From contig OZ024740.1 of the NCBI GenBank assembly GCA_964016885.1, forward strand, positions 273,916,001 to 273,980,000: a stretch of 64,000 nt of DNA. The letters run 5' to 3'. A model generated the notes under the pieces. That model had not been told where the DNA came from and ran no database searches. It saw only the letters and a list, made by a program, of their open reading frames with translations. The position numbers were made by a program, and so were the translations under genes. Source of the stretch: Eledone cirrhosa. Taxonomy: Eukaryota. Shown here one piece after another: positions 4,719 to 62,145 of this stretch (positions are counted from its first letter, which is position 1; every line of letters begins with the position of its first letter).

Positions 4719-5126
4719 TTAGAATTGGAGCTCTGAAATAGCAATATATATATGGATGTATATATAATGTATTTTGCAATACACTTTATGCTTAATTAAA
4801 AGCATTTTGAAGACCGTAAGCGATTGTTTTTTAGAGTAGTGACAAATTCACTTACTTTGATCTCAGCAAACAGGGGAGATAAGCCGACAAGGCCTTGTTT
4901 CGCTTTTGTTGAAGCTTATCAAGGCTAACTACTCCCACCTGTCTACCGAGATCACTGATGTTATATTCTTATAGAATTCTAGTAAATAATCAGGAGCTGA
5001 TTATGCAGAGCGGTTGTTGGTGAGGCAGAAATTAAAAATTAGAATTGGAGCTCTGAAATAGCTTACGGTCTTCAAAATGCTTTTAATTAAGCATAAAGTG
5101 TATTGCAAAATACATTATATATACAT

Positions 5127-5135
<9 letters not shown>
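4719..5135 (-). mobile_element. Retrozyme-like/Penelope-derived ~320-bp non-coding unit with inverted partial copy
   Basis: Direct repeat ttagaattggagctctgaaatagc at 4719 and 5039 (320 bp apart). Inverted repeat 4748-4821 vs 5061-5135. Contains a hammerhead and is flanked by (TA)n. Confidence 0.75.
4882..4926 (-). ncRNA. Type I minimal hammerhead ribozyme, U3-A8 core variant
   Basis: Minus strand: agcc TTGATAA gctt caacaa aagc GAAA caagg ccttg TC ggct. Stem I agcc/ggct, stem II gctt/aagc, palindromic stem III, GUC site. Confidence 0.85.
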
Positions 5136-12879: not shown

Positions 12880-12920
12880 TATTTTCTGATGAACGACGAA
12901 GGTCCGAAACGTTAAGAATA
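12880..12920 (+). ncRNA. Type I minimal hammerhead ribozyme (canonical CUGAUGA core)
   Basis: tatttt CTGATGA ac gac gaag gtc c GAAA cgt TA agaata. Weak base of stem II; palindromic AACGUU stem III. Confidence 0.65.
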
Positions 12921-12933
12921 TTTTCCTACTCTA

Positions 12934-13091
12934 TCAAGCGTAAAACTAATAACATATTTCATCATTGTACTGTGTCGTTTGCTTTGTTATTTCTGTTTGC
13001 CTTTTGTATATATATATACAAAAGGCAAACAGAAATAACAAAGCAAACGACACAGTACAATGATGAAATATGTTATTAGTTTTACGCTTGA
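12934..13091. repeat. Perfect 158-bp palindrome (tail-to-tail Penelope-like ends centred on (TA)n)
   Basis: tcaagcgtaaaactaataac...cttttgtatata|tatatacaaaagg...gttttacgcttga with no spacer. Confidence 0.9.
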
Positions 13092-14329
13092 AATATGTTA
13101 TTAGTTTTACGCATATATAGTGACACAGAGACCGAGAAAGAGAGAGGCCTAAATTGAGACACACACATGCCTGTGGGTTGTAAAAGCATGGAGACATAAA
13201 TAAGTACACATATACATTCGTTGTGATGTGGTCAAGGAGAGGTGTATAAAGATACGCTGATGGATAGAATGATGATAGATGGTAAGTGAAAAAGTTATAT
13301 GTGAATGAAAATCTTAAAGGAATTTCCTATATATTATTAGTGTAAAAGTTTGGAAATATAAAAAAATATATATATTTCTAAGAAATTTTTCGATCTGTTT
13401 ATTTTTTCAATTGCTTCTTTTCATTGCAATTTATTAAAATTTCATATGTATATATCGCAATTATGCTAACTAATCAAAAGTATAGAAGAGTCTAAAAGCA
13501 TAATACTGGCAAAATGCATATATTTCTAAAGAACGATGCATATTTTATATACACATGCCTGCATATATATATATATACAGAGAAATACACACATACAAAT
13601 ATTCACACATATACATAGAGAAATACACGCAGGCAAATACTCACACAAAGATATATACAAAGAAATACACACAGACAAATAATCTTTCACACACACACAC
13701 ATATATATATATATATACTTACATATATATCTTTATATATCTGTGTGTTTGTGTTTGTACGTATAGGTATGTATTCATATACATATAACATTAATGTATA
13801 TATGCGTGCACTTGTGCATCTGTACGCATTTAAACACATACCATTCCTCATTTAAAATTATTGAAGCTGTAAAAAATATTCTTTTTAAGCAAGTAAATAA
13901 AAATATATATAAATTAAAATATAATTAACAAAAAATAAATTTTGAAAGGGTTCTCTCTTTTCCGTTTGTTTTTAAATAAATTCCCTCTCATTAACAACTA
14001 GGAACACCTGCTAATGAAATTTGAACTGAAAATCACTTCCGTATTAGAAAAAGAATGTTGTGGAAGTTAAAATGAAATATTTTATTTATTTACCAACGTA
14101 GGTAGATTTTTGTGTATGCCAAAGGATACAGAAATTCTAAAATAATTATTTATTTGATGCATCTGGAAATTTTCTTAGTTAAAGATACATCTTAATTGAT
14201 TTTGGGTATGAACTAATACGTATAAAAACTTCGTATTCTTGGACAATGAAGAAATACACTGTTGCTGGGTAAATAAAATGTCAATGTAGGTATGTAACAG
14301 CGACATGCGATACGTTGTCCGCTTCATAG

Positions 14330-29149: not shown

Positions 29150-30487
29150 GTTCTTTGAGTCTCAGTCATTGATGTTAGTTAACTGGAAAGTTTGTTGAAA
29201 TGAATATCAAGCCGCTACCAGCAGCCTCAGATATTCAGGACGTATCGGAGGGTTCTTGCTGTTCCCAGCAAGCATGCCTTTTGAAGTGTTCCAAAAAGCG
29301 GGGCGGGGCCAATTTTCTTTTCCATCATTGGAAACTCTTTGAGATAGTACCTAGTGCGCCTATGACAATCGGGACCACTTTGACTTCATGGCAGTCCCAA
29401 ATCCTGTTTACCTCCCACTTTAAGTCCTGGTATCGGTTATTTTCTCCCTCTCCTTCTCTTGCACTCTCGTTTCAAATGGGCAGGCTACATCTACAATCAG
29501 GCACGATCTTTTTTCCTTGTCCAAAACCATCATGTCAGGCCTATTGTGTTCTAATTTCTTGACCGTCTGTATCCTAAAATCCCATAGCACCTTCACCTGA
29601 TCGTTTTCTATCACCGACTCTGGCTTATGCTCATGCCACTTCTCAGAATGTGGTAAATTGTTTACTTTGCATAGATGCCAGTGGATGACCCTGCCTATCA
29701 CATCATGTCTCCAGCCTTTATAGTGAGACTGGACTAGGTGTTTACACTCGGATACAATGTGAGCCACAGTCACCTCTCTCTCTCCACAGTGAGCTAGCCT
29801 CCTCCTTGTAAATATGGTGTTTCACCCATTTCGTTCTGAGGGCCTGCTCTTGCGCAGCCATTAGCATTCCTTCTGTAGCTTTTTTAAGGTCTCCTCTTTT
29901 TAACCAGTTCCATGTCTATGGATCTCTAAATTCAGTTTTCCTAAAGAAGGTACTAGGAATGGATTTTTCATGAAGGTTGCTCTTCCTTCTTATTGTTATT
30001 CCTTCCTTGGACATCCCCTGGTCTATTGTCTTATCCTAGTACAATTTTGAGCATTGGCACCCTACTGTCAGTCACGTATTTGTGCAGGGTTTTTTTTCTC
30101 CATCTGAACACAGTCCTCTATGGTGATAAGACCTCTTCCACCTTCAGATCTCTTTAAGTAGAGTCTATCGACATCACTCCTCTTGTGGAAGATGTAGTAG
30201 ATAGTCAATAGCTTCCTAGTCTTCCTATCCATTTCTTTTTGTTCAGCCACATTCCATCTCAGAATTCCCGCAATGTACCTAATAATTGTTTCTACTTTAG
30301 GCACAAGGCCAGCAATTATTCCAGTGCATTACTGGTACTTACAGCTCGGGACTCGGGAATTCACTGCACTTATGACATTCCTACTATTTAGATGTGATTA
30401 AATACACTCCTTACTCTTCTTATGTACTCAGATCTTATCAATTCCTTCATTTTTTTTGTTTTTGATGTCATCTGCCTCCAGAATACC
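29150..30487 (-). mobile_element. R4/Dong-like RLE non-LTR retrotransposon, 5'-truncated pseudogene
   Basis: TVAHIVSECK...RHD...VLWDFRIQT...HNRPDMMVLDK...IVDVACP (CCHC remnant plus PD..D endonuclease) and RLYLKRSEGGRGL. (TAA)n on both flanks; short SINE tail inserted at ~30283-30340. Confidence 0.88.
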
Positions 30488-30964: not shown

Positions 30965-32933
30965 ATGGAAATTTTCGACCTTGAAACGGTAAACAACGTT
31001 CAGGACAACATTTTAAAAGCAGCCACTGTAGATTTCGCCACAACTACGAAAGCTACTCTACTGAAAGTGAAGGCAAAACTCAAAAGCTACCATCACAACA
31101 TTCTGTGTTAGCATCAGTATCATCTGAAAACGACATCACCACCACCACCGCCGCCACCGCCACCACAGTCACCACCACCACAACAACAACAACTCAGAGC
31201 AACAACGACAATAACACCGACAGCTTCAATGTAAACACAGATGGCGGTGGCAACAGCAACAACAAACAAAACAACAACAACAACAAACAATAACGACAAG
31301 AACGACAACACCAACAACAAGAGCAACAGAGGCAGCACCTTTGCTGCAGCAGCAGCAAAAACAAAGCGCCTATTGGATATTGATATTAGCGATAAAGACG
31401 AACAGTTGGCCCAGGCGTGGAGGCTAATTAAACGGGAGAAGTCCTCGGTAAACCTGACCATCCCGGACGGGGCAATAGCGGCCATGCAAAGGAGGACGGT
31501 GAACTTTCGATACATTTCGGTGCAGACGCGAAAAGTGGAACTTGCCAGCCAAGCAGAGGTCGAGGCTGTTTTGCAGTGCATCGGAAGTGACATAGAGTAT
31601 AAAGCAAGGGCCAAACAGTTCGGTACCATCTCGGTACTGTTCAAAACCGAGGCCCTTGCTATTAAGCACTCGGTGACCCCCCTGCAGAACGGAATACATC
31701 ATCATGCACCCGTCCTACATGGGTAAAAGGACAGTAAAGGTCTGCATTCCCAGCATCCCACCAGGAATGAACATATGGTGGCTGCTGGGATGCGTAATCG
31801 CGGAGGGGACAGACACTACCCTCCTGGATGTCAAAAGGACAGAGAAAGAAGACTGGTCCAGAATGGATTTGGAGATTCTTCTCCAAATGAAACCGGAGGA
31901 CATGAACAACATCCCAGATTTTGCCCGCCTGCAGGACGGGACAACAATCCAACTAATCACTGAGGGAAGAAGCCCACACTGCTTCGTCTGCGGGGAAGCA
32001 ACGCATCTGCAAGCCTTCTGCCCTCAGCGCAAAAAATGCAGAGTGTCGCAAACCACCTTTGTTGCCAACGCCAGTGTCAGCACGGAAAGCTGCACCACCA
32101 CCACCACCAAAAACAACACCAACAAAGACACGGACGCCAACATCAAAAACAGCCGGACCACCACCAACACCGAAACAAATCCAAGGGGAAAACGAGGAAA
32201 GCCACCCCCCACCTCTACCCCCAATTATACACATAGAATAAAACAATAAACGCACACACAGACACAGAGGGACTCACAGCCATAGACCCTTTGTCTTCCA
32301 GCAGCAAAGGAAAACCCCAAAGTGCAAAAAAACAGAGAAACCTCACAAAAAAAGCCCCAACAAAACACAAAAACACACACAACAAAAAATACAGACACCA
32401 CTAACGCAAACACTTCCCCAATAACATCAGCACCACAAGCAACATCGACACCACCCCCACAATCCCCGAAACGCAAACAACCTAAACAAACATAAGTACA
32501 AATAAACACACAAATACCTGAACTTGCAGACACCACACCTACAACAAACACAGACATACCCGAAACAGTACCACTAAAAGCATAACCATCACAGTCACCA
32601 AAACGAAAACAAATAAAACCACACCAACAAAATGTTAAAAACTTCGTGCTTGTCAGAAGGGCCAACGATAAACTGATGGCGCTCTTAACACGAAGCGAGG
32701 AAATTCAAACAGAGGGTGAGATTTTTGAAATGAGCACATTTTGCGTGCCAGAAGATTTGCTTCTAGTCCGAATGTCACTCGATTCCTTAAAAGAAATTCG
32801 AGAGAGCTTTCCTCAAGACGTGGGAACCCCGAATGTGAAACCTACATCGAGACTTTTAAAGGGGTTCCCAAAAGAAACCACACCAACCATGGAAGTCGAA
32901 CCACCCGATTTTTCACAAGACCCTGGGAGGTAA
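30965..32933 (+). pseudogene. L1/Tx1 ORF1 (gag-like, CCHC knuckle), frameshifted
   Basis: ATG at 30965; ORF pieces 31241-31726, 31704-32249 (HCFVCGEATHLQAFC) and 32646-32933; T/N-rich low-complexity linkers. Confidence 0.8.
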
Positions 32934-32967
32934 GTAAACCTCCCCTCTCTCTTTTAGCTTGCCAACA

Positions 32968-35900
32968 TAGCCATATTAAGAATAGGAAGTTTAAATGTTC
33001 TTGGCCTGAGGTCACCCTGGAAGCAGGGTCGCCTGCTCAACGACCTCAGGTCGCTGAAAATGGATGTGATTGCCGTCAGCGAGACCAGAATTTCCGACAC
33101 GCGCGCACTATCAGATCTTCGCATCTGTTAGCAGGCCTGGAATGCGGTGGGGGGTGGGGGTGGGGGGGCAGTGCTGTTTAGAAAAGGACTGGATATCGAG
33201 GTAAGGTCTATCTTCCGGGACCCGGACGGTAAGTTGGTGATCTTGAATGTGAGTAGTAGCGAAGGTGGTGCCTTTAGACTGCTGGCCGTCTACGCCCTTA
33301 CAGGTGCCGGACGTCCGGACTTCTTTAGGCGCTTGGAGACCTTTCTGGGTACGTCTCGCCCTTTACTGTTAGCGGGAGACTGGAATGGCATCTTAGACGC
33401 ACACTGGGATTTTATGGGAGTAGCCGATAGGAGCGGGGGGTGCAAAAGCCTCAAGCACCTACTCAACCAGTTCTAACTGTCTGACAGGTATCGACTAGAT
33501 TTCCCCAATGTACCAGTATGGACATGGACCAACCGAATAGAGTCATCTAGATCGTATATAGAGAGGATGCTCATTAGGAAAATAGATAGAAATAGTGTAG
33601 GCTGCCCACTTTTTAAAACGGTCGCCTATTCAGATCTCAAATTTGTGATCTGTACGGTCGACCTAGATAAAACGCGTAGGTTAGGACCAGGTTACTGGAA
33701 GCTGAACATGTCATTTCCGGCACGTAAGGCTTACAGGGACCGAGTCAACATTTAGTTAAGCAAAAGTTGACGAGGGGGATCATCAACAACAGATCGTGGG
33801 CAGCTCTCAAAAGAGAGATTAGAGTAACATCGATTGAGTTCAGAAAAGAACTAGCGTTAGAGAAAAATAGAAAGGAGGGGTAGCTGGTAGATAAGTTAGA
33901 CGAGGCTATTTGTAGTGGCATTTCAACTGACATGCTAGCGGCGAGAATGGCATTAGACCAGATCTTCAATGTGAAACACGAAGGTTGCATTGTCAAAGCT
34001 AAGGCGCGTGCGTTGAGAAACGAGGGAACCAAAGCTGTTCGATGGGGCCGCGTGGCGGAGGCGCAGCGTGGTAATAAAACCACAATTCTGTCTTCGGCGG
34101 AGCGAGACGGACACGAGATAAGCGATTCCAAGCGGATGTGTGAGGCCTTTCGCCAGCACTTTACTCGGTTGTTCGGGGAGAGCGGCGAGTCAGAGAGAGT
34201 AGCGGATTTCAGACCCTACCTTGACGGCTTGCCGCGCATCACGACGGCTGACGCTGAGCGCTGCGAAAGGCCGATTACTTCAGCCGAAATCATGACGCCC
34301 TCGTCGGCTGCATGAGGCGCAAGTCACCCGGTTTGGCTGGCCTGCCCTACGAGCTTTACGTAAATATGCCAGACTTGTTCTCTGAACTCCTCGAAGCACT
34401 CTACTGCAACTGGCAGCAGAATGGGAGTATTCCCAGTTCTGTGAGCAGGGGAGTGGTGACGCTGATAATGAAAGACGAGAACAAGAGGGATACATTAGAT
34501 AACTTCAGGCCCATAACTCTGCTCAACACAGAGTTTAAGATTCTGGCCAAGGTGTTAGCAAATAGATTGGCGCCTGTCGTCGAGGATTTGGTTGGGGTGC
34601 CGCAAACTTGCGCAATCCCAGCCAGGTCGATACACGACAATCTCCACCTCATGCTATACATCATAGAGAGAGTAGGGTGTAAACCTGGCTTTGGTGGGGC
34701 ACTGATCAATTTAGATCAATCGAAAGCATTCGATGGGTCGACCATCGGTATCTGGAGTTTGTCCTCAAAGCAGCTGGCTTCGGCCCTGTCTTCAGAAGCT
34801 GGATCGCTGCAATGCACAGCGGCACACGCTCGGTGGTCAAGGTTAATGGCAACCTCTCGGAACCATTTCGGCTCTCCCGATCGGTCCGTCAAGGGTTCCC
34901 TCTCTTTCCCCTTCTGTACGTATTGACTCTCGAGCCTTTACTGCGGAAGCTGGAGCCGTTGCAGAGCATCCCGATCGAACCGGGACGTGGAAAGGAGGTG
35001 GGGGCTTATGCGGACGACAACACCGTGATGGTGTCAAACATATCAGAAATCGAGGTGGTCAGCACCTTATTGAAGGAATATGAAAGGTTGACAGGAGCCA
35101 AACTTAACCCGGAAAAGTCGCTGGGCTTGTAGCTCGGAACCTGGAGAGGCAAGCCCATGCCGTCCAACAGCGTCGTGGTGTGCTGGACGGACGGACCGGT
35201 AAAGTTACTCGGTGGAAAATAATTGGGACGAGGTAACGAGCAGAGTAGCCAGTCTCACCAAAAAATGGGCTGGGAGGAAGCTATCACTGAAAGGTCGCGC
35301 GGAGGTGGCGAATGCGTACATCGCGTCCGTCATCTACTACCGCATGATCGTCGTGCCTTTCCCCCGTCCGCGACTCGTCAAGTTGGAACGGCTCCTCTTC
35401 AAATTCTTGTGGAGGGGACAAGTTCCGTTGGTGAGGCGGTCCATCTGCTGCCAGCACCCTCTACGCGGAGGGTTGGGCATGCCCTGTTTAATGATGCGCA
35501 GACATGCGTTGAGGCTGCGACATCTTCAGATATTCTGCCTAAATGGTGAACAGGTGTGATCGCCGTTTATCAGACGGGCCTTTCCGCAGCTCATTTCCTT
35601 GACTGAGCTGCAGTCCTGGGTCAAGGAGAAACGTAGACTGGGTGACTGGCACCTGGAATGTTGCCAGGCACTCACTGCCCTCTACCAAGCGGGCAATGCG
35701 ATCAGTGGAACTTCCACTCTTGAGTTCTATAGAGGATTAATGGTGGGCAAGTGCGATGACGCACTCGAAGAAGCTTTGGGCCTCGACGAAGTCGAACTGA
35801 CCAGTCTGTACCGGAGGTCTTTCGAACCGGGGACGATGGACAATTTCCAGCAATCCCTCGCTTGGCAGAGTTACCGGGGGGCAATGCCGGTTCGGGATAA

Positions 35901-36353
35901 ACTCTATAGGCACGGAAGTGCTGTCAGACGGACCTGCCCAAGATGCGCAGAGAACGACGAAACTGTTCTGCACGCACTTGTCCAATGTCCGTGCATTACT
36001 GACTTGTGGAGTTATGTCGAACAGCTACTGTCGCGTGTGAAACGAATCCGGCTATCGGCCGAGTCCATAGTGAAGATCGACCCGCCGCCTTCCTTAGGTC
36101 AGGAAGAGCAGGAAATTTTCCTCTGTCTGGTGGCAGTTGCGAAAGGGGTTATATGGTGGACCAGATTAAAAGGACTGAAGATAGACACTTTTCTCTTCGG
36201 CCAATCCCTCATCAACTTCTGCTTCAAGTTTCACATGGAAAGGAAGGTGAGGGTGGAGAGAGAAGTGCTGACCCCAGTACATTTGTTAAAAGGTGGATGA
36301 ATGTGGCGAGAAAGGCTCGTGTGAATGGGCCTACTCTGACCATGCGCCTATAG
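32968..36353 (+). pseudogene. L1/Tx1 ORF2 (APE endonuclease, reverse transcriptase, C-terminal zinc motif), disrupted
   Basis: IGSLNV.GL...SET, LAGDWN, SD.K, GPGYWKLN, KSPG..GLP.ELY, NFRPITLLNTEFKILAK, LDQSKAFD, VRQG.PL.PLLY, AYADD, CPRC...ETV.HALVQC. Confidence 0.92.
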
Positions 36354-38067: not shown

Positions 38068-38817
38068 CTGTAGAAAGCTACATAATGGCTACAGAGAGTC
38101 ACATATTTAGTGCTCGAGCTTTCTGTACTCAGTTATTAACATATTAAACAATCGCTCAATTAACATCCTATGATCTTAAAAACAGAAAGGCGCAGAAGAT
38201 AATGTAGTGATAGATACATTATGTCATGGTAGACTATGACCGAATACAATCCACTTGATACTGAAATACATTTACATTTGATCCTGGGCCACCGTGATAT
38301 TTGGAGGATATAAGTTTATTAGAAATTCTCTTACCAATATTATTTGATTTTTAACAGCAAATTCAGTAGTTTTTTGGTATTTAATGACATTTACATTCTG
38401 ATATCAAATACTGCTAGCTGCAATATTTGCCTTTCATCCTTCCGAGGTTGATAATATTAGTAGTTTGAGAGATTATAATTGACAGTTCCTTTCATTCAAT
38501 ATATATGGCCTTGTACGTATGTTAAAAACCAATATTATTTAATTCAATTATTCCATATAGAGGTGCAGGCATAGTTATGTGGCTAAAAAGTTCTCTCCGC
38601 AACCACGTAATTTCGAGTTCAGTCGCACTTTATCTTCTACTATTTTGTGGGTGAAATTTGGTAGGCTGAAATTAAGCAGAAGCTCATCGCATATATATAT
38701 ATACTGTATGTTTAATTAACTGTATGTAATATACTGTATGTTTAATTAAAAACATTCGCTATGAGTTTTAAAGTAGTGACTACGTCACTTACTAGTTCTA
38801 GGCAAATACAACAGAGA

Positions 38818-38867
38818 GCGGCCGACAGACAGTCTGTTTCTCGCTTGTGAGCGTTTATCAAGACCAC
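38818..38867 (-). ncRNA. Type I hammerhead ribozyme, U3-A8 core variant
   Basis: Minus strand: gtggtc TTGATAA a cgct caca agcg a GAAA cagac t gtctg TC ggccgc. Confidence 0.8.
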
Positions 38868-39228
38868 ACACTCAGTTGCCTTTGCTGAGAATTATACAGG
38901 TTGGATTCTTATAGAATTCCAGTAATAATCAGGAGCAGATTATACAGAGCGATTGCCGGTCCACCAAAAATTACGTATTAGTATTGGTGCTCTGAAATAG
39001 CAATGTATACATGAATGTATGTATAGTATATTTGGCAATATATTGTATGTTTAATTAAAAACATTTAGAAGACCATTCATTATGAGTTGTTAAGTAGTGA
39101 CTATGTCACTTACTTATTCTCCGCAAAAACAAAAGAGGGTGACCGTTACTTAATTAGCTCCTGATTATTACTGGAATTCTATAAGAATCCAGCCTCTATA
39201 ATTCTCGGCAAAGGCAACTGAGTGTGTC

Positions 39229-39278
39229 GTGGCCTTGATAAACGCTCACAAGTGAGTACCAGACTGTCTGTCGGCCGC
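39229..39278 (+). ncRNA. Mutated hammerhead copy (GAAA changed to GTAC)
   Basis: gtggcc TTGATAA a cgct caca agtg a GTAC cagactgtctg TC ggccgc. Confidence 0.6.
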
Positions 39279-39487
39279 CCTCTGTTGTTCTTGCAAAGAA
39301 TAAATAAGTGACATAGTCACTACTTTAAAACTCATAGCGAATGGTCTTCTAGATGTGTTTAATTAAACATACAGTATATTGCCAAGTATACTATATATAA
39401 ATATATATATATATAAAGAAAAAGAGATGAAATCGAAAATGCAACTGAAGTCTTATTTTTTAAAAAAATATATATATTTATTTGGTT

Positions 39488-39525
39488 CCTTTACCGGTTT
39501 CGCAGTTCTTCTGCTTTTCAAAAGG
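39488..39525 (-). ncRNA. Pseudo-LTR hammerhead ribozyme, U3-A8 core variant
   Basis: Minus strand: cctt TTGAAAA gcag aagaa ctgc GAAA ccgg TA aagg. Confidence 0.85.
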
Positions 39526-40689
39526 TGAGTTGAGATGGAGGGTCTGTGGTTTTTCTCACATCTGGTTGGTCTCTAAATGTTACTTGTTTTATATGGAAAA
39601 AGTGGGTCGAAAGCCAGGTTTTTCGAGAAGTAATTTGATTGGTTTGTCAATAATTATAATAAATTTCGCGCCAGTTCGCGTTACAATAGTTCTTCAAATA
39701 AGAGAGGGGGGGGGTTGTCACAGGTTGTTTTTTCATATATGAGTGTTTGAATTTCTTTTTACTTGAAACAAGGAGGCTCACGAAGGCTTTTTTTTGGTTG
39801 GTTATAAATGAAATTTGGCTGTCACGTGAACAAGTTTTCATTACATTTTTGCGCCCTTATTTGGAAAACTATTCTGTAGTCTTTATAGTGAATGTTATGA
39901 CAATGGAGAGATAGTGGTCAAGGGAAAAGGGATTGGGAGAAATGTTCTGGTTCAGTGAATATGGCCAGCTGTCAGAGTTCAGGTGTCAGAGTTCAGATTT
40001 TCTATTGAGACTGAAGATATGTGTTTATTTGTGTGCTTGTGTGTGTGTATATGTGTGTGTGTGTATGTGTGTATTGGAAGATGATTCTATTAGTAGAGAT
40101 GGGGGAGGGAGTTGTGTGTGTGTGTATATGGGTGTTATGTGTGTGGGAGTATGGTTAGCATGTTAAGATGAAGAGAATATATATATATTGTGTGTGTATG
40201 TGTGTGTGTAGGAAAGTGATTCCTTTAGTAGGAAGATGATTCTATTAGTAGAGATGGGGGAGGGAGTTGTGTGTGTGTGTGCGAGTATGTTAAGATGGAG
40301 AGAATATATATTTTGTGTGTATATATATATATATGTGTGTAGGAAAGTGGTTCTATTAGTAGAATGGGGAGGGAGTTGTAGGTGTGGGGGTTGTTATGTG
40401 TGTGTATGGGTGTTATGTGTGTGGGAGTATGGTTAGCATGTTAAGATGAAAAGAATATATATATATATATATATATATTGTGTGTGTGTGTATGTGTGTG
40501 TGTAGGAAAGTGATTCCTTTAGTAGGAATATTTTTGAATGAACATATTTTCCTGACTTTTTCGTGTTTGCTGTTGCATTTCCAGTGCAAACGTATGTTAA
40601 GGTTTATTTAGTTCGGGTTTTTATTTTCTAAACTAGAAGGTGTTATGTGTGTGTGTGTATGTCATATTGTGGTGTTGACATAATGTATA

Positions 40690-42015
40690 TTAAACCTTAT
40701 TTAATGTTGGTCTATATTTTTGAATAAACATATTTTCCTTATTTATTCGCATTTGTTCTGTTGTATTGTTAGCGCAAAGGTAAAATGGGAAGACTTGGAA
40801 TTTGGGTGTCTTATTACTTGCGCAAATGTCTAGATGTGCACTTAGTGGTATCTGTCTCGTGGTTGGATCTCCTGGTTGGCGATGAACTGTCATTCTGTTT
40901 CTGAGTGTGAGTTTACATTGCATCCTTTACATTTAATGGCATAAACTAGATTTTTTGATGAGCAAGTGAAGTAATTTTTTACAGTAAAATTTTGTCCTGA
41001 TTTAAATGTATACGTGTTGCCTTCAATGAGGTGAGTGCAGGTTCCACAATTAGAGCGACCACATTTTTTGATACTTGGTTGTGGGTTTGTGGTAGGTAAT
41101 TTGGCATTGGTGAGTAATGTTTTCAGTGATTTTGGTTGTCTTTTGCTTTTGATTATTTTGTGTGTTTCAAGGGCTTTTTTCATTCTTAGGTTTTGTTTTA
41201 GTAGTGGGATGTTATTGTGAATAGTGTTGTAAGCTTCCGCATTTCTTGGGTTGTGTGTTGAGATATATGATAGAATATTGGACGTACCTTGAATTTGTTT
41301 CTGTTTCCGTAATTCATCAATGCCTATTGCTTTAGCCCTTTCTATTCCATTATTTATTAGTAATAATGGGTATTCTCTCTCAAGTAGAATTTCCTTTAAT
41401 TCTTGAAGTCTTTTATTTCGCGTTTCATAATTGGAGACAATTGTGCACATTCTTCTTGCTAGGTTAAAAGGAATGTTCGTCTTCGTGTGCTTTGGATGGT
41501 TGGAGGTGAATAGCAGATATTGTTTGGAATCTGTTGGTTTGTATTGTATGTCAGTTTCGATATTTGTGTCTTTTTTTGTGATTAAGATGTCCAGAAATGG
41601 GAGTTGATCTTGGCTGTATTCCATTGTGAATTGGATGTGGTTATTGATGCCGTTTATTAAGTTTTTGAAATCCTTCAGTTGGTCGAGTGTGTGGGACCAA
41701 AGAATGAGGCAATAATCCAAGTAGCGTTTCCAATTCTCTGATAAATATTTGTGGAAGTTCAATCCGTATTTTGATTTGGACTGTTCATATATCTGGACTT
41801 CTAAGTATGCCATGACTAAGTTGGCATAAGTTGGAGCGGCTTTTGTGCCCATCGCAGTCCCCGATATTTGCTTGTAAGTATTGCCATCGAAATCAAAAAA
41901 GTTGTTCTGTAGGATGAATTTTAATCCCTCGGTGATGAAGCTTTTTTCTATTCTGTCAGGTATCTCATTGGGATATTTCTCTAGCCAGAATCCTATTGCT
42001 TCTAGTCCGTATTGG
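40690..42015 (-). pseudogene. Penelope RT/GIY-YIG polyprotein, N-terminally truncated and frameshifted
   Basis: YKQISGTAMGTKAAPTYANL, WKRYLDY (second catalytic Asp lost), LPFLD, YKPTD, CGRSNCGTC, NLVYAIKC. Frameshift into LRNRMTVHR...KENMFIQKYRPTLN; the YIG motif is missing at the junction. Confidence 0.9.
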
Positions 42016-42466
42016 TGACAGCTGGCCATATTCACTGAACCAGAACATTTCTCCCAATCCCTTTTCCCTTGACCACTATCTCTCCATTGTCATAACATTC
42101 ACTATAAAGACTACAGAATAGTTTTCCAAATAAGGGCGCAAAAATGTAATGAAAACTTGTTCACGTGACAGCCAAATTTCATTTATAACCAACCAAAAAA
42201 AAGCCTTCGTGAGCCTCCTTGTTTCAAGTAACAAGAAATTCAAACACTCATATATGAAAAAACAACCTGTGACAACCCCCTCCCCCTCTCTTATTTGAAG
42301 AACTATTGTAACGCGAACTGGCGCGAAATTTATTATAATTATTGACAAACCAATCAGATTACTTCTCGAAAAACCTGGCTTTCGAGCCACTTTTTCCATA
42401 TAAAACAAGTAACATTTAGAGACCAACCAGATGTGAGAAAAACCACAGACCCTCCATCTCAACTCA

Positions 42467-42504
42467 CCTTTTGAAAAGCAGAAGAACTGCGAAACCGGTA
42501 AAGG
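42467..42504 (+). ncRNA. Pseudo-LTR hammerhead ribozyme, U3-A8 core variant (inverted copy)
   Basis: cctt TTGAAAA gcag aagaa ctgc GAAA ccgg TA aagg. Confidence 0.85.
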
Positions 42505-43471
42505 AACCAAATAAATATATATATTTTAAAAAAAAAATAAGACTTCAGTTGCATTTTCGATTTCATCTCTTTTTCTTTATACTTCCACTCGTGTAGGACA
42601 CCTCGGTTATTTTTCATTTTGTAAAAAAAACCTCACTTTCTAATATATATATATATATAGAAAAGAGACATGACCCCAAAGAAAACAGATAATTGTAGGT
42701 GAAAAAGTTATAACAGCTCAAAAACATGAGATTTATTACAATAAACTGCTCATAAGGGTATATAGAATTACTAATATGATTGTTTAGGTATACGCAAAAC
42801 ATCGCATTGAAAATAAAACCAAACACTGCTAATTATATCATATTTTAATTAACATATGTTTTATCCATCTTACTAATTATAGTTAAAAATTAATTAATTA
42901 TTAATTAATTAATTATATATTTCAATAATTGGAATCTTCAGATGTAATAAGTCATATAAGTAACATTTTACCTTGACAAACACATTCTGTTTACAGACGT
43001 ACCGTAAGAAAACATTTTGCTTACAACTTAAAAAGACCAACGTCATACATGAGTATTATATTGCTTAACACAGTTATTTCGACCAGTAATTCGTGTAGCT
43101 ATTTAAACGAATAATCATATAATATGGGAAATCTATAGTAAGGGTTATAGGCAATTTTTCCTTTTTGCACAATAAATTATGTATAAATATTAGCAGTCTC
43201 AGGAAGGAGAACACATTTCACATGTTAGATTGTACGTACACCCATATATCTATACTTATATGCACGATACTATACATATGTATACACTCTCACTCTATAC
43301 ATATGTATACATTTCTTCAATTGAAATAAAAATTCAAGTAACTATTTATATAAAAAAAACATCAAAGTAAAAACAATTGATTTTAAGTACATCACAGATG
43401 AATGCCTAAATATACATACGCATACATACATAGATATACTTATATATATTTCTCACCCAGCTATGTGTATG

Positions 43472-43599
<128 letters not shown>

Positions 43600-43681
43600 T
43601 ATATATTATATATATATATATATAATATATAAAATGCAACTTCAGTTACATTTTCGATTTCATATATATATATTATATATA

Positions 43682-43759
<78 letters not shown>

Positions 43760-43847
43760 TTATATATATATATAATATATAAAATGCAACTTCATTTCGA
43801 TTTCATATATATATATTATATATATATATTATATATATATATATATA

Positions 43848-43888
<41 letters not shown>

Positions 43889-43933
43889 TAATATATATAT
43901 ATATATAATATATATAATATATATATATATATA

Positions 43934-43974
<41 letters not shown>

Positions 43975-44377
43975 TTATATATATATATATATATAATATA
44001 TAAAATGCAACTTCAGTTGCATTTTCGATTTCATCCCTTTTTCTTTATACTTCCACTCGTGTAGGACACCTCGGTTATTTTTCATTTTGTAAAAAAAACC
44101 TCACTTTCTAATATATATATATATATATATATATTAGAAAGATCGAGTATCGAAAAATCGGCGCACGAGTTCACGATAAACGAAATTCGATATGAGCGGC
44201 AGAGGGCTCAATAATTCAGATGAATCAGAGCTATAACTATCGTTAAAATACCGTCACATATAGAACAAGTCTACAATCAACCATACGATTTAAAATCGAT
44301 AAAGGAAGATTCGGGCCAAACAGATAAAAAATATCAATAAAACAATACGTCAATAATTTAAATGAATGTAAAATCAT

Positions 44378-44513
44378 ACCCGGACCCACTAGACAGGTGT
44401 TAAATCTAGCTTCATGGGTTTCTGTAAATCCTTAGACTGTACTCTATCAGCTCACATATAAATATAAAAGCCTACTAGAGTAAGTGGAACGGAGGTTTAC
44501 TTTATCAACGAGT
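44378..44513 (-). ncRNA. Extended type I hammerhead, U3-A8 core, long stems II and III (copy 1)
   Basis: Minus strand: actcg TTGATAA a gtaaa cct..act tactcta..ggctt.tatat tt atatg.gagct..tagagta cagt..agg a tttac a GAAA ccca tgaag ctaga..tctag tggg TC cgggt. Confidence 0.8.
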
Positions 44514-44993
44514 TTTTTCATGGCGGCAGAGGAGCCAACTACCAGTGAAAAACGCACATGGCATTAGACAAGGGAGATGACCCCTATATCCGCGAAAACA
44601 ATTCGAGTGAATGTGGAAATACACATATCGAATTAGAGTGCTCAATAGACATGTTAAAATAAAACAAAAGCTATTCATCACTCAATAGAATCGACAAAAA
44701 ATGAGCAATAAAATTAACTGGTGGATAGCTATGTCCAGAGCTAAATATATTAGAAAGATCGAGTATCGAAAAATCGGCGCACGAGTTCACGATAAACGAA
44801 ATTCGATATGAGCGGCAGAGGGCTCAATAATTCAGATGAATCAGAGCTATAACTATCGTTAAAATACCGTCACATATAGAACAAGTCTACAATCAACCAT
44901 ACGATTTAAAATCGATAAAGGAAGATTCGGGCCAAACAGATAAAAAATATCAATAAAACAATACGTCAATAATTTAAATGAATGTAAAATCAT

Positions 44994-45129
44994 ACCCGGA
45001 CCCACTAGACAGGTGTTAAATCTAGCTTCATGGGTTTCTGTAAATCCTTAGACTGTACTCTATCAGCTCACATATAAATATAAAAGCCTACTAGAGTAAG
45101 TGGAACGGAGGTTTACTTTATCAACGAGT
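44994..45129 (-). ncRNA. Extended type I hammerhead (copy 2)
   Basis: Identical to 44378-44513, offset 616. Confidence 0.8.
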
Positions 45130-45899
45130 TTTTTCCTGGCGGCAGAGGAGCCAACTACCAGTGAAAAACGCACATGGCATTAGACAAGGGAGATGACCCC
45201 TATATCCGCGAAAACATACTAAAATACAGCAAGAGGAATGCAAAAAGTATTGTAGAATACCTCTTTTCTCTGCTGCATCGACGATTCCGCTTTATCCATG
45301 ATTTCAAGACTAAATAATTATATATCACACTATATCTTGCCATAATCTGAATGGTATAAACTTTGAAGCACGTCAACTTAAAGGAAAGTGTTACGAGCAA
45401 CAGAACCCATATCAGTTACTTGTGTATTCAACAAATATGTTTGATACTGTGACAAAAGCTGCTCTGTGTCAGATCTTTATCAGATTAAGGTGCACGGAGC
45501 ACTTTGCCAATATAATCGGTTTGGGTAAATATTAGTGGTATCATTTCAGTGCCCTCAAAGTTTAAAATAATGTTATACAGGATGATCTCATGGCTATTTT
45601 TTTCTTTATCAATTTCTCTGTATTTCTCATAAATGCCACGGGACTGTAATGAAGGCAACTCCAACGGGTATCACTCATCAGGAAAGCTTTGCAGCATTAG
45701 GGATTTGCTGTAAAGATTAAAATCCTCCAAATTCTCACTTTCGTCATTCTTAACGATAGACGCTACGATCTAGTTGCCAATTCACAGCAAAGTTTCATTA
45801 ATAGACTGTCTTGTAAAGCATTTGGATTAACGCTTAGCTTCAAATAAATTGTAGTAATATTTCAACCTTCTCTGGGATCTCCTTATATATTGATAGATT

Positions 45900-60538: not shown

Positions 60539-60671
60539 TAAAGGAAACACAAACATAGCGATAGACATTTCCCCTCATCAGTTTTCTGCCGCGGTTGCGT
60601 CGAAACATCCAAGACCTGCAGCAGACAACTGATGAGGGGAAATGTATATCTCTATGTTTCTGTTTCCTTTA
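60539..60671. repeat. Imperfect inverted repeat (~55-bp arms) containing CTGATGA
   Basis: taaaggaaacacaaacatagcgatagacatttcccctcatcagtt pairs with aactgatgagggggaaatgtatatctctatgtttctgtttccttta. Confidence 0.8.
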
Positions 60672-61479: not shown

Positions 61480-62145
61480 AGTAACCTGTCCTCTCAAGGA
61501 GGCCTGCAAAGTGCACTCTACATGTGAATGGAGCTCTACTGAAACAGGTGTAGGAATTCAAGTATCTCAGCGCTGTGTTCACAAGAAATGGAAGGCAGGC
61601 GGCTGAATTAATAGCAAGAATTTCCGAAAGCAAGTGCAGTAATGTGCCAGCTTCAGCATTCGGTAATCAGAAGAAGGGAGGTATAAAAGAGAAAATCTAT
61701 CTTTCATTCGGTATTTGCGACTCCACTTAACTATAATCATGAATCTTGGGTAATGTCCAAAAGAATACGATCACAAATACAAGTCGCCGAAATGGGGTTC
61801 CTCCGAAGGGTATTTGAAGTAACTTTATTCTATAGATTGTATACCTCAGAAATCAGAGAACCACTCCCGGAAGAGCCGCTATTTCTCCGAATTGAGAGAT
61901 CCCGGTTCCGATATTATGAGCATGTGTTTATAATATCTCACGAAAGAATCGCTAGACAGATTTTATGGGGACCCAAAGGTAGATCGGGAGCAAGAGGGTT
62001 GGACAAAATACATGAGCTCAGATTGTCTCGCTTGGGGATCCAGTCTGATCAACTGGAGTCAGGCGTTTCTGACAGGACACACTGGAAGGAATATTTGAGG
62101 ACTCTTTCCCCGCGACCCGTTCAGGAAGTGGGCGAAGGATAAAAA
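61480..62145 (+). mobile_element. RTE LINE 3' fragment, same group as 56.3-57.1 kb
   Basis: EFKYLSAVFTRNGR...RIRSQIQVAEMGFLRRV...EIRE.L..EPLFLRIERS. Confidence 0.85.

Follow-up and report, generated by a model that had tools for sequence, protein, structure and literature searches.

A Penelope-like element with ribozyme-bearing inverted arms in Eledone cirrhosa

The window analyzed here is a 64,000-nucleotide (nt) stretch of the Eledone cirrhosa genome (contig OZ024740.1, positions 273,916,001 to 273,980,000, forward strand; coordinates below are those of the window). Its main subject is a Penelope-like element at 39412-42642 and the non-coding repeats near it, designated families A, B, and C, which share with the element a hammerhead ribozyme core of the U3-A8 type. 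A first-pass annotation had described an open reading frame (ORF) with reverse transcriptase (RT) and GIY-YIG endonuclease (EN) sequences between inverted repeats of ~560 bp. Our analysis confirms this anatomy: the arms measure 563 and 566 bp, and each contains a U3-A8 minimal hammerhead (Table 1). The element is an EN-containing (EN+) Penelope-like retrotransposon, and both it and the U3-A8 variant are of already known kinds.

Over 368 amino acids (aa), the ORF remnant is 76% identical to P0001, a full-length relative of 772 aa, and it begins at P0001 residue 323, within the RT core. Its nearest named proteins come from Octopus bimaculoides (74%) and Argonauta (63%), which by itself would suggest an octopod host. 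The window's own ORF pieces matched 0 families in a Pfam search, and P0001 matched GIY-YIG above the curated cutoff and RVT_1 below it. A single ORF joining RT to a C-terminal GIY-YIG domain, as expected of EN+ Penelope-like elements, is seen in P0001 and is broken in the window copy. A separate O. bimaculoides protein, the TRPV5 model P0046, has a terminal stretch 69% identical to the window RT and is likely a misannotation or an exonized fragment.

The cysteine linker reads CX4CxxC plus CxxC within the ORF, with both His residues of the CCHH motif in the downstream frame; across 46 sequences, the five Cys are invariant and the His residues nearly so. A CX2-5CxxC linker ahead of the EN is a trait of Neptune, Nematis, and Naiad elements (PMC8557442). 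The EN lies C-terminally here and N-terminally in Naiads, and the element is therefore not a Naiad; it also has a hammerhead, and Naiads have no canonical one. The linker and the CCHH motif suggest a Neptune or Nematis type, as judged beside RT trees that contain no named Neptune or Nematis element. Shared with those EN+ elements are RT followed by C-terminal GIY-YIG, CX2-5CxxC, CCHH, a hammerhead in the terminal repeat, a 5′ inverted copy, a tail, and a microsatellite target, whereas the window element differs in its tail of 61 nt (versus 30 to 40) and in being a truncated copy without a direct tandem pseudo-long terminal repeat (pseudo-LTR) (PMC8557442, PMC3846280).

The proposal that this copy is dead, being 5′ truncated with YLDD changed to YLDY and the YIG motif lost, also holds. 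The RT motif reads YLDY (codon at 41712-41714). The YIG block is lost to a 19-nt deletion at 40915, which also shifts the frame, and another deletion, of 3 nt, lies at 40874. Four public runs (X1, X2, X6, and X19, where X6 is organism C) were aligned to 40560-42640. Other copies in these runs read D at the altered position (X1, 18243/18260 depth; X19, 139/147 reads; X2 and X6 likewise), and both deletions are absent from X6 contigs (3338/3422 depth) and from X2 (record 10, 22 gap bases). We conclude that the window copy is dead, a statement about this copy and not about its whole family. In viral contigs, neither a relative of the element protein nor a match to a degenerate pattern for the element ribozyme was found, and a search of public runs with the coding element gave no RNA run among the matches listed.

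The two arms agree at 557 of 563 aligned bases, with 3 gap bases, and both 3′ ends of the element enter (TA)n. The end at 42581 recurs in 38 X1 contigs, and the tail end at 42640 is joined to TA in 51 X19 reads, all from 1 start. Over the ribozyme and tail, X1 depth reaches 37-fold the median of the ORF; although this does not measure copy number, it points to numerous short 3′ copies, such as the one at 43979-44127. The 5′ inverted copy and optional tail of EN+ Penelope-like elements are both present, and this 5′-truncated copy has no direct pseudo-LTRs of the kind formed by a partial tandem. Beside the short copy lies a 535-bp TA expansion (43468-44002), in which a hairpin-shaped junction from the 3′ end of the element recurs as three partial repeats.

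Hammerheads of the window

The element hammerhead combines the core, stems I and II, and palindromic stem III of a minimal type I ribozyme, and stems I and II are present in the minimum-energy fold. A scored scan of the window returned nine matches at a score of ≥18, six of them U3-A8 (scores 25 to 30) and three C3-G8 (18 to 22, each with a stem flaw); 60 shuffled windows yielded at most 0.05 matches per core type per window. The U3-A8 matches are the two in the element, one each in family A (38861) and family C (4922), and two in family B (45124 and 44508), so that scans restricted to CUGANGA would overlook six of the nine. Stem III is palindromic in the element, family C, and all three C3-G8 ribozymes, and that of family A is almost palindromic, which fits dimers. 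Folding z-scores of the isolated ribozymes are unremarkable (−0.1 to −1.9). Rfam reported no hammerhead among the 150 of 286 matches listed, nearly all of which were microRNA models on microsatellites. U3-A8 hammerheads were earlier demonstrated to be active in vitro in other contexts (PMC3088659).

A strict scan (7 U3-A8, 0 C3-G8) had raised the idea of an all-U3-A8 genome, which was dropped when the scored scan found the three C3-G8 ribozymes; the strict-scan core at 23262 is an all-A/U chance match. At the base of stem II, the unrelated families A and B (38861 and 44508/45124, minus strand) place A opposite A, and the element and family C have G-C.

Non-coding families that carry the U3-A8 core

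The annotation's report of two flanking non-coding families with the U3-A8 core is upheld at 38861, 44508, and 45124, all on the minus strand. In families A and B, the three-way junction is the minimum-energy fold; this is not so for the family C monomer. Family C is a 68 to 79% relative of family A, and between the two, stems II and III differ. The ribozymes look selected because these stems change while pairing and core stay. The families were also said to be unrelated to each other, and local alignment scores between A/C and B indeed fall within those of shuffled sequences.

Both 616-nt units of family B have a hammerhead, with 2 differences between the units in 475 nt, and the family ends in CTTTCTAA followed by (TA)n. 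The partial tandems of A/C have one intact ribozyme per copy. The main copy of family C ends in TTCTAA-(TA)n and has a tail of ~30 nt. In one case, the family A main copy, the 5′ end is at most 1 nt away from the predicted cut site, a hint that cleavage produced the template's 5′ end.

Non-LTR retrozymes (described in PMC7229834) consist of tandem non-coding units that each have a type I hammerhead, and the families of the window are built in this way. They also resemble them in size (described range, 51 to 972 bp) and in co-occurring with Penelope elements; unlike described non-LTR retrozymes, they have a U3-A8 core and no detectable homology to the neighboring pseudo-LTR, and the A/C inversion, the C tail, and the TA-end footprint are not among the retrozyme features described in the available parts of these sources (PMC7229834, bioRxiv 10.64898/2026.07.22.740005). 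An alternative explanation could be that A/C and B are terminal pieces of other autonomous Penelope families rather than non-autonomous elements. Short 3′ fragments prevail in the window element's family too, as the 37-fold X1 depth indicates, and solo ribozymes have been interpreted as truncated elements (PMC4209133). However, the units of A/C (~320 nt) and B (616 nt) close head-to-tail and contain no ORF of more than 62 codons, and neither A/C nor B matched the RT/EN profile. We regard such an origin as very improbable.

A shared insertion footprint

The element and families A, B, and C run into (TA)n at each of their 3′ ends. Among the 92 TA-tract flanks of the window, TTCTAA precedes the tract at four, namely twice in the element and once each in B and C, and at none of the other 88; the background of this motif is 0.0005 per position, and it was picked after the data had been seen. 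Families A and C also copy the head-to-head inversion of the element, with 3′ ends facing outward, and family C is tailed as well; 5′ inversions and tails are reported for Penelope elements (PMC8557442, PMC3846280). One TA tract is common to family A and the 3′ end of the element, and another is common to family B and the short 3′ copy. Target choice would thus account for the position of families A and B next to the element, as all three insert into the same TA tracts.

From these common features, A/C and B are likely retrozymes that elements of this type mobilized in trans. The helper/satellite system that had been proposed from the shared ribozyme accordingly stands in part: the footprints are common ((TA)n, TTCTAA, inversion, and tail), but a lineage-specific ribozyme variant is not supported across Penelope elements. 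The suggested comparison of 3′ ends and targets, run within the window, is similarly divided, with (TA)n in all and TTCTAA in the element, B, and C, but half of the listed ends without TTCTAA.

Several observations weigh against trans mobilization by this element. Homology was found neither between the pseudo-LTR and A, B, or C nor between B and A/C (local scores of 18 to 23, against 21 to 22 in shuffles), in a test that took in the pseudo-LTR of this element only, and the published model derives retrozymes from pseudo-LTRs (24/57 Xenopus families; bioRxiv 10.64898/2026.07.22.740005). Alignments of the whole 34-nt ends are weak (shuffle p of 0.04 to 0.12). Four of the eight listed 3′ ends lack TTCTAA, including those of all family A copies at 38.7-39.4 kb, and family B has neither inversion nor tail. 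In addition, (TA)n is an insertion target of Naiads in two Octopus species (PMC8557442 supplement), and the three other hammerhead families of the window end near TA tracts as well; target sharing alone therefore does not single out this helper. Finally, the link between U3-A8 and TTCTAA in the window (3/3 versus 0/3 families) leans toward the idea, taken up below, that the core marks a lineage.

The Naiad insertions raise the possibility that another TA-targeting element, an octopus Naiad or a different Neptune family, moves the satellites and that TA tracts merely collect insertions. Besides favoring (TA)n, the Naiads of the two Octopus species form tandem and inverted structures and tails (PMC8557442), Octopus vulgaris has 31 recently active Penelope-like families (PMC13282606), and the satellites have no homology to the pseudo-LTR of this element. 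On the other hand, TTCTAA is common to the satellites and this element and absent from the other 88 TA flanks. We consider a different mover possible, although doubtful.

Mobilization by this kind of element remains our preferred explanation. The mover of animal retrozymes has so far been argued from co-occurrence and homology: retrozymes of vertebrates were proposed to be non-autonomous Penelope derivatives on the basis of co-occurrence and pseudo-LTR homology (bioRxiv 10.64898/2026.07.22.740005). Ribozyme repeats that are non-homologous to the helper and yet have its footprint (TA target, end, inversion, and tail) provide a specific helper and satellite with which priming could be assayed in vitro. 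Literature listings, with most subscription papers and Repbase outside the search, included no study of hammerheads from the Penelope elements of octopuses, and the main text of the O. vulgaris repeat paper, as available, does not mention ribozymes (PMC13282606).

U3-A8 across Penelope elements

The U3-A8 core had been annotated as rare and lineage specific, a view not borne out across Penelope elements. It was published as a natural covariation (PMC3088659), and Cercyon Penelope elements of Schistosoma mansoni have ~1,300 U3-A8 matches versus ~2,000 canonical ones (PMC4209133). Near-identical ribozymes are U3-A8 in S. mansoni and C3-G8 in S. japonicum (PMC4209133 supplement), and C3-G8 hammerheads occur in the same window as the element. 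The available parts of PMC6765202 and PMC7151607 add nothing further on U3-A8. The element resembles Cercyon in its U3-A8 core, in the presence of UUGAAAA and UUGAUAA forms, in C3-G8 ribozymes within the same genome, and in the palindromic stem III. In contrast to Schistosoma, which belongs to another phylum, the ribozyme of the window element has no extra base after A9 and a stem II of 4 bp, and the window has non-coding tandem U3-A8 families with a longer stem III (PMC4209133).

Comparison elements for the RT tests all came from other hosts, and the octopus-like proteins were without core data. Of 146 related loci, 40 had a hammerhead match (29 C3-G8, 9 U3-A8, and 4 with a mismatched pair), two of them having both C3-G8 and U3-A8. 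The nine U3-A8 loci all belong to a single assembly, in which both cores occur within one RT clade at ~30% identity to the query. Among the scored loci, the four closest to the window element (42 to 49% identity) are C3-G8. Both RT trees were quick trees. In the tree of 42 rows (34 loci, the window, and 7 unlabelled proteins), U3-A8 lies in two distant parts, which forces at least two core changes. Left out were L083, L084, and L120 (C3-A8/U3-G8 matches taken as chance), L113 and L144 (same ribozyme as L095), and L107 (<200 aa). When the U3-A8 rows and P0001 were constrained to one clade, the topology was rejected (approximately unbiased [AU] test, p = 5.9e-8; 21 rows), so that the RT phylogeny called for by the annotation speaks against a single U3-A8 clade. 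With near-copies removed, the U3-A8 label was no more clustered than in shuffles (165/500). We conclude that U3-A8 is neither rare nor tied to one lineage across Penelope elements.

A narrower version, in which U3-A8 marks one Penelope lineage within this genome together with satellites that descend from it or depend on it, appears unlikely. Consistent with it, all six intact, best-scoring hammerheads of the window are U3-A8 and belong to three unrelated families; each U3-A8 family, and none of the three C3-G8 families, has a TTCTAA end (p = 0.05 within the window); and the octopus-like RTs group on a separate branch with support (6 rows, 100). Yet position 3 of the same ribozyme (42471) is U in X1, X2, and X19 and C in organism C, X6 (21300/21569 depth), the 3-8 pair flips between congeneric Schistosoma elements and inside one RT clade, and the satellites are without homology to this pseudo-LTR. 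Switching of the 3-8 pair between close relatives illustrates, in nature, how a ribozyme core evolves by compensatory change.

The related loci yielded three further observations. The sister RTs L050 and L074 have a C3-A8 mismatched core and a C3-G8 core, respectively, a possible switch intermediate. Loci L049-L072, from one assembly, are tandem arrays of Penelope families, with ribozymes of the C3-G8 and U3-A8 types following each other in alternation along one contig (L060, L062). Animal-type Penelope elements in many prokaryotic genome bins (L075-L146) are likely host contamination.

Proposed mechanism of insertion

We consider it probable that the locus contains a dead copy of a TA-targeting Penelope element whose neighboring retrozymes were likely mobilized in trans, that insertion was target primed, and that U3-A8 is a recurrent swap. 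The insertion steps are modeled on the biochemistry of the Anolis Poseidon element PAc (PMC11167929), whereas the anatomy, lesions, (TA)n ends, end motif, and architecture were observed directly. In this model, the EN would cut a (TA)n tract, which is identical on both strands, and reverse transcription would be primed from both cut ends. Complementary DNA (cDNA) synthesis would begin internally on the RNA, either 81 or 142 nt past the ribozyme cut, the choice giving rise to the tail. Two incomplete cDNAs might then join head-to-head by a short overlap to form the inverted arms, and RNAs of A/C and B could be taken up into this reaction by way of their TA-like 3′ sites. Inversions have alternatively been proposed to originate by self-priming on an antisense template (PMC3846280).

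PAc resembles the window element in having two 3′ ends past the hammerhead that bound a tail and in its AT-rich target, and both-strand extension by PAc would account for the head-to-head arms. It differs in that the Poseidon clade lacks the cysteine linker and the PAc ORF begins inside the hammerhead, whereas the 142 nt past the cut site of the window element are A+T rich and contain no 60-codon ORF (PMC11167929). Insertion by PAc was unaffected by ribozyme mutants (PMC11167929), which argues against the core as the recognition feature of the helper. U3-A8 would then be a recurrent compensatory swap of the 3-8 base pair that keeps activity and serves at most as a mark of local ancestry, not as a recognition signal.

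A more ambitious scheme is that an octopod TA-targeting Penelope lineage mobilizes unrelated retrozymes through a TTCTAA priming site, stamping inversions and tails on them, with U3-A8 tracking the group and ribozyme cutting making the real 5′ ends of the templates. We hold this combination to be rather unlikely as a whole. If true, animal retrozymes would be linked to a named helper by a direct footprint of insertion, independently of pseudo-LTR homology.

Other features of the window

Table 1. Coordinates of the Penelope-like element, the non-coding families, and the hammerheads in the window
Feature	Position	Strand	Remarks
3′ terminal segment (pseudo-LTR part), main copy	39412..39974	-	ends 81 nt past predicted cut site, in (TA)n
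Minimal type I hammerhead, U3-A8 core, palindromic stem III	39488..39525 (core 39521)	-	scored scan, fold
3′ untranslated region	39975..40689	-	(CA)n-rich internal repeats; decayed ORF-end duplicate 40528-40594, 80% like 40714-40782
Penelope-like ORF remnant, 5′ truncated	40690..42017 (ORF 42017 to 40693)	-	mid-core RT, thumb, CX4CxxC linker, GIY-YIG
Inverted, 5′-truncated copy of 3′ end	42016..42581	+	head-to-head to ORF, 2-nt overlap
Second U3-A8 hammerhead of element	42467..42504 (core 42471)	+	position 3 = 42471; C in organism C
Tail, right arm only, 61 nt	42582..42642	+	TTCTAA end, then (TA)n
Extra short 3′-end copy, without hammerhead	43979..44127	+	edge of 535-bp TA expansion; tail-to-tail with 616-bp family B
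Family A main copy, ~320-nt unit, 1.4 units	38703..39145	-	U3-A8 core 38861; 3′ end in (TA)n
Family A inverted, 5′-truncated copy	39151..39392	+	core 39235 without GAAA; TA tract in common with Penelope 3′ end
Family B, 616-nt unit, 1.8 units	44126..45216	-	U3-A8 cores 45124, 44508, long stems II and III
Family C, relative of A	4719..5130	-	main copy 5062 to 4719, core 4922; inverted 3′ copy 5057-5130
C3-G8 minimal hammerhead, one stem II mismatch	12886..12919	+	other family, different 3′ end
C3-G8 minimal hammerhead between TA tracts	18244..18281	-	other family
C3-G8 minimal hammerhead, slightly decayed	23672..23729	+	~50 nt before TA tract; different 3′ end

The C3-G8 hammerheads lie in repeats of their own. 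At 12886-13100, the 3′ end of one family stands tail-to-tail with an inverted copy (~85-bp arms), with a short TA tract between them, and a related 3′ end is found at 27935 on the minus strand. The second hammerhead lies in an element of ~300 nt (17990-18530) with TA tracts on both sides and short inverted flanks beyond, and the third (23676-23778) has its TA tract ~50 nt downstream.

Further afield, a frameshifted long interspersed nuclear element (LINE) at 31200-36300 (plus strand), with pieces of an ORF1-like zinc knuckle and of RT, is one that we take by eye to be L1/Tx1-like. Segments at 29420-29821 and 61687-62142 (both minus strand) resemble, by eye, C-terminal parts of other non-LTR retrotransposons. 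A sub-threshold Rfam match to mir-184 lies at 60561-60649 (minus strand; 33.9 bits, cutoff of 54.1). At 27685-27806, a palindromic element of ~120 bp with long terminal inverted repeats and TA flanks resembles a miniature inverted-repeat transposable element (MITE).

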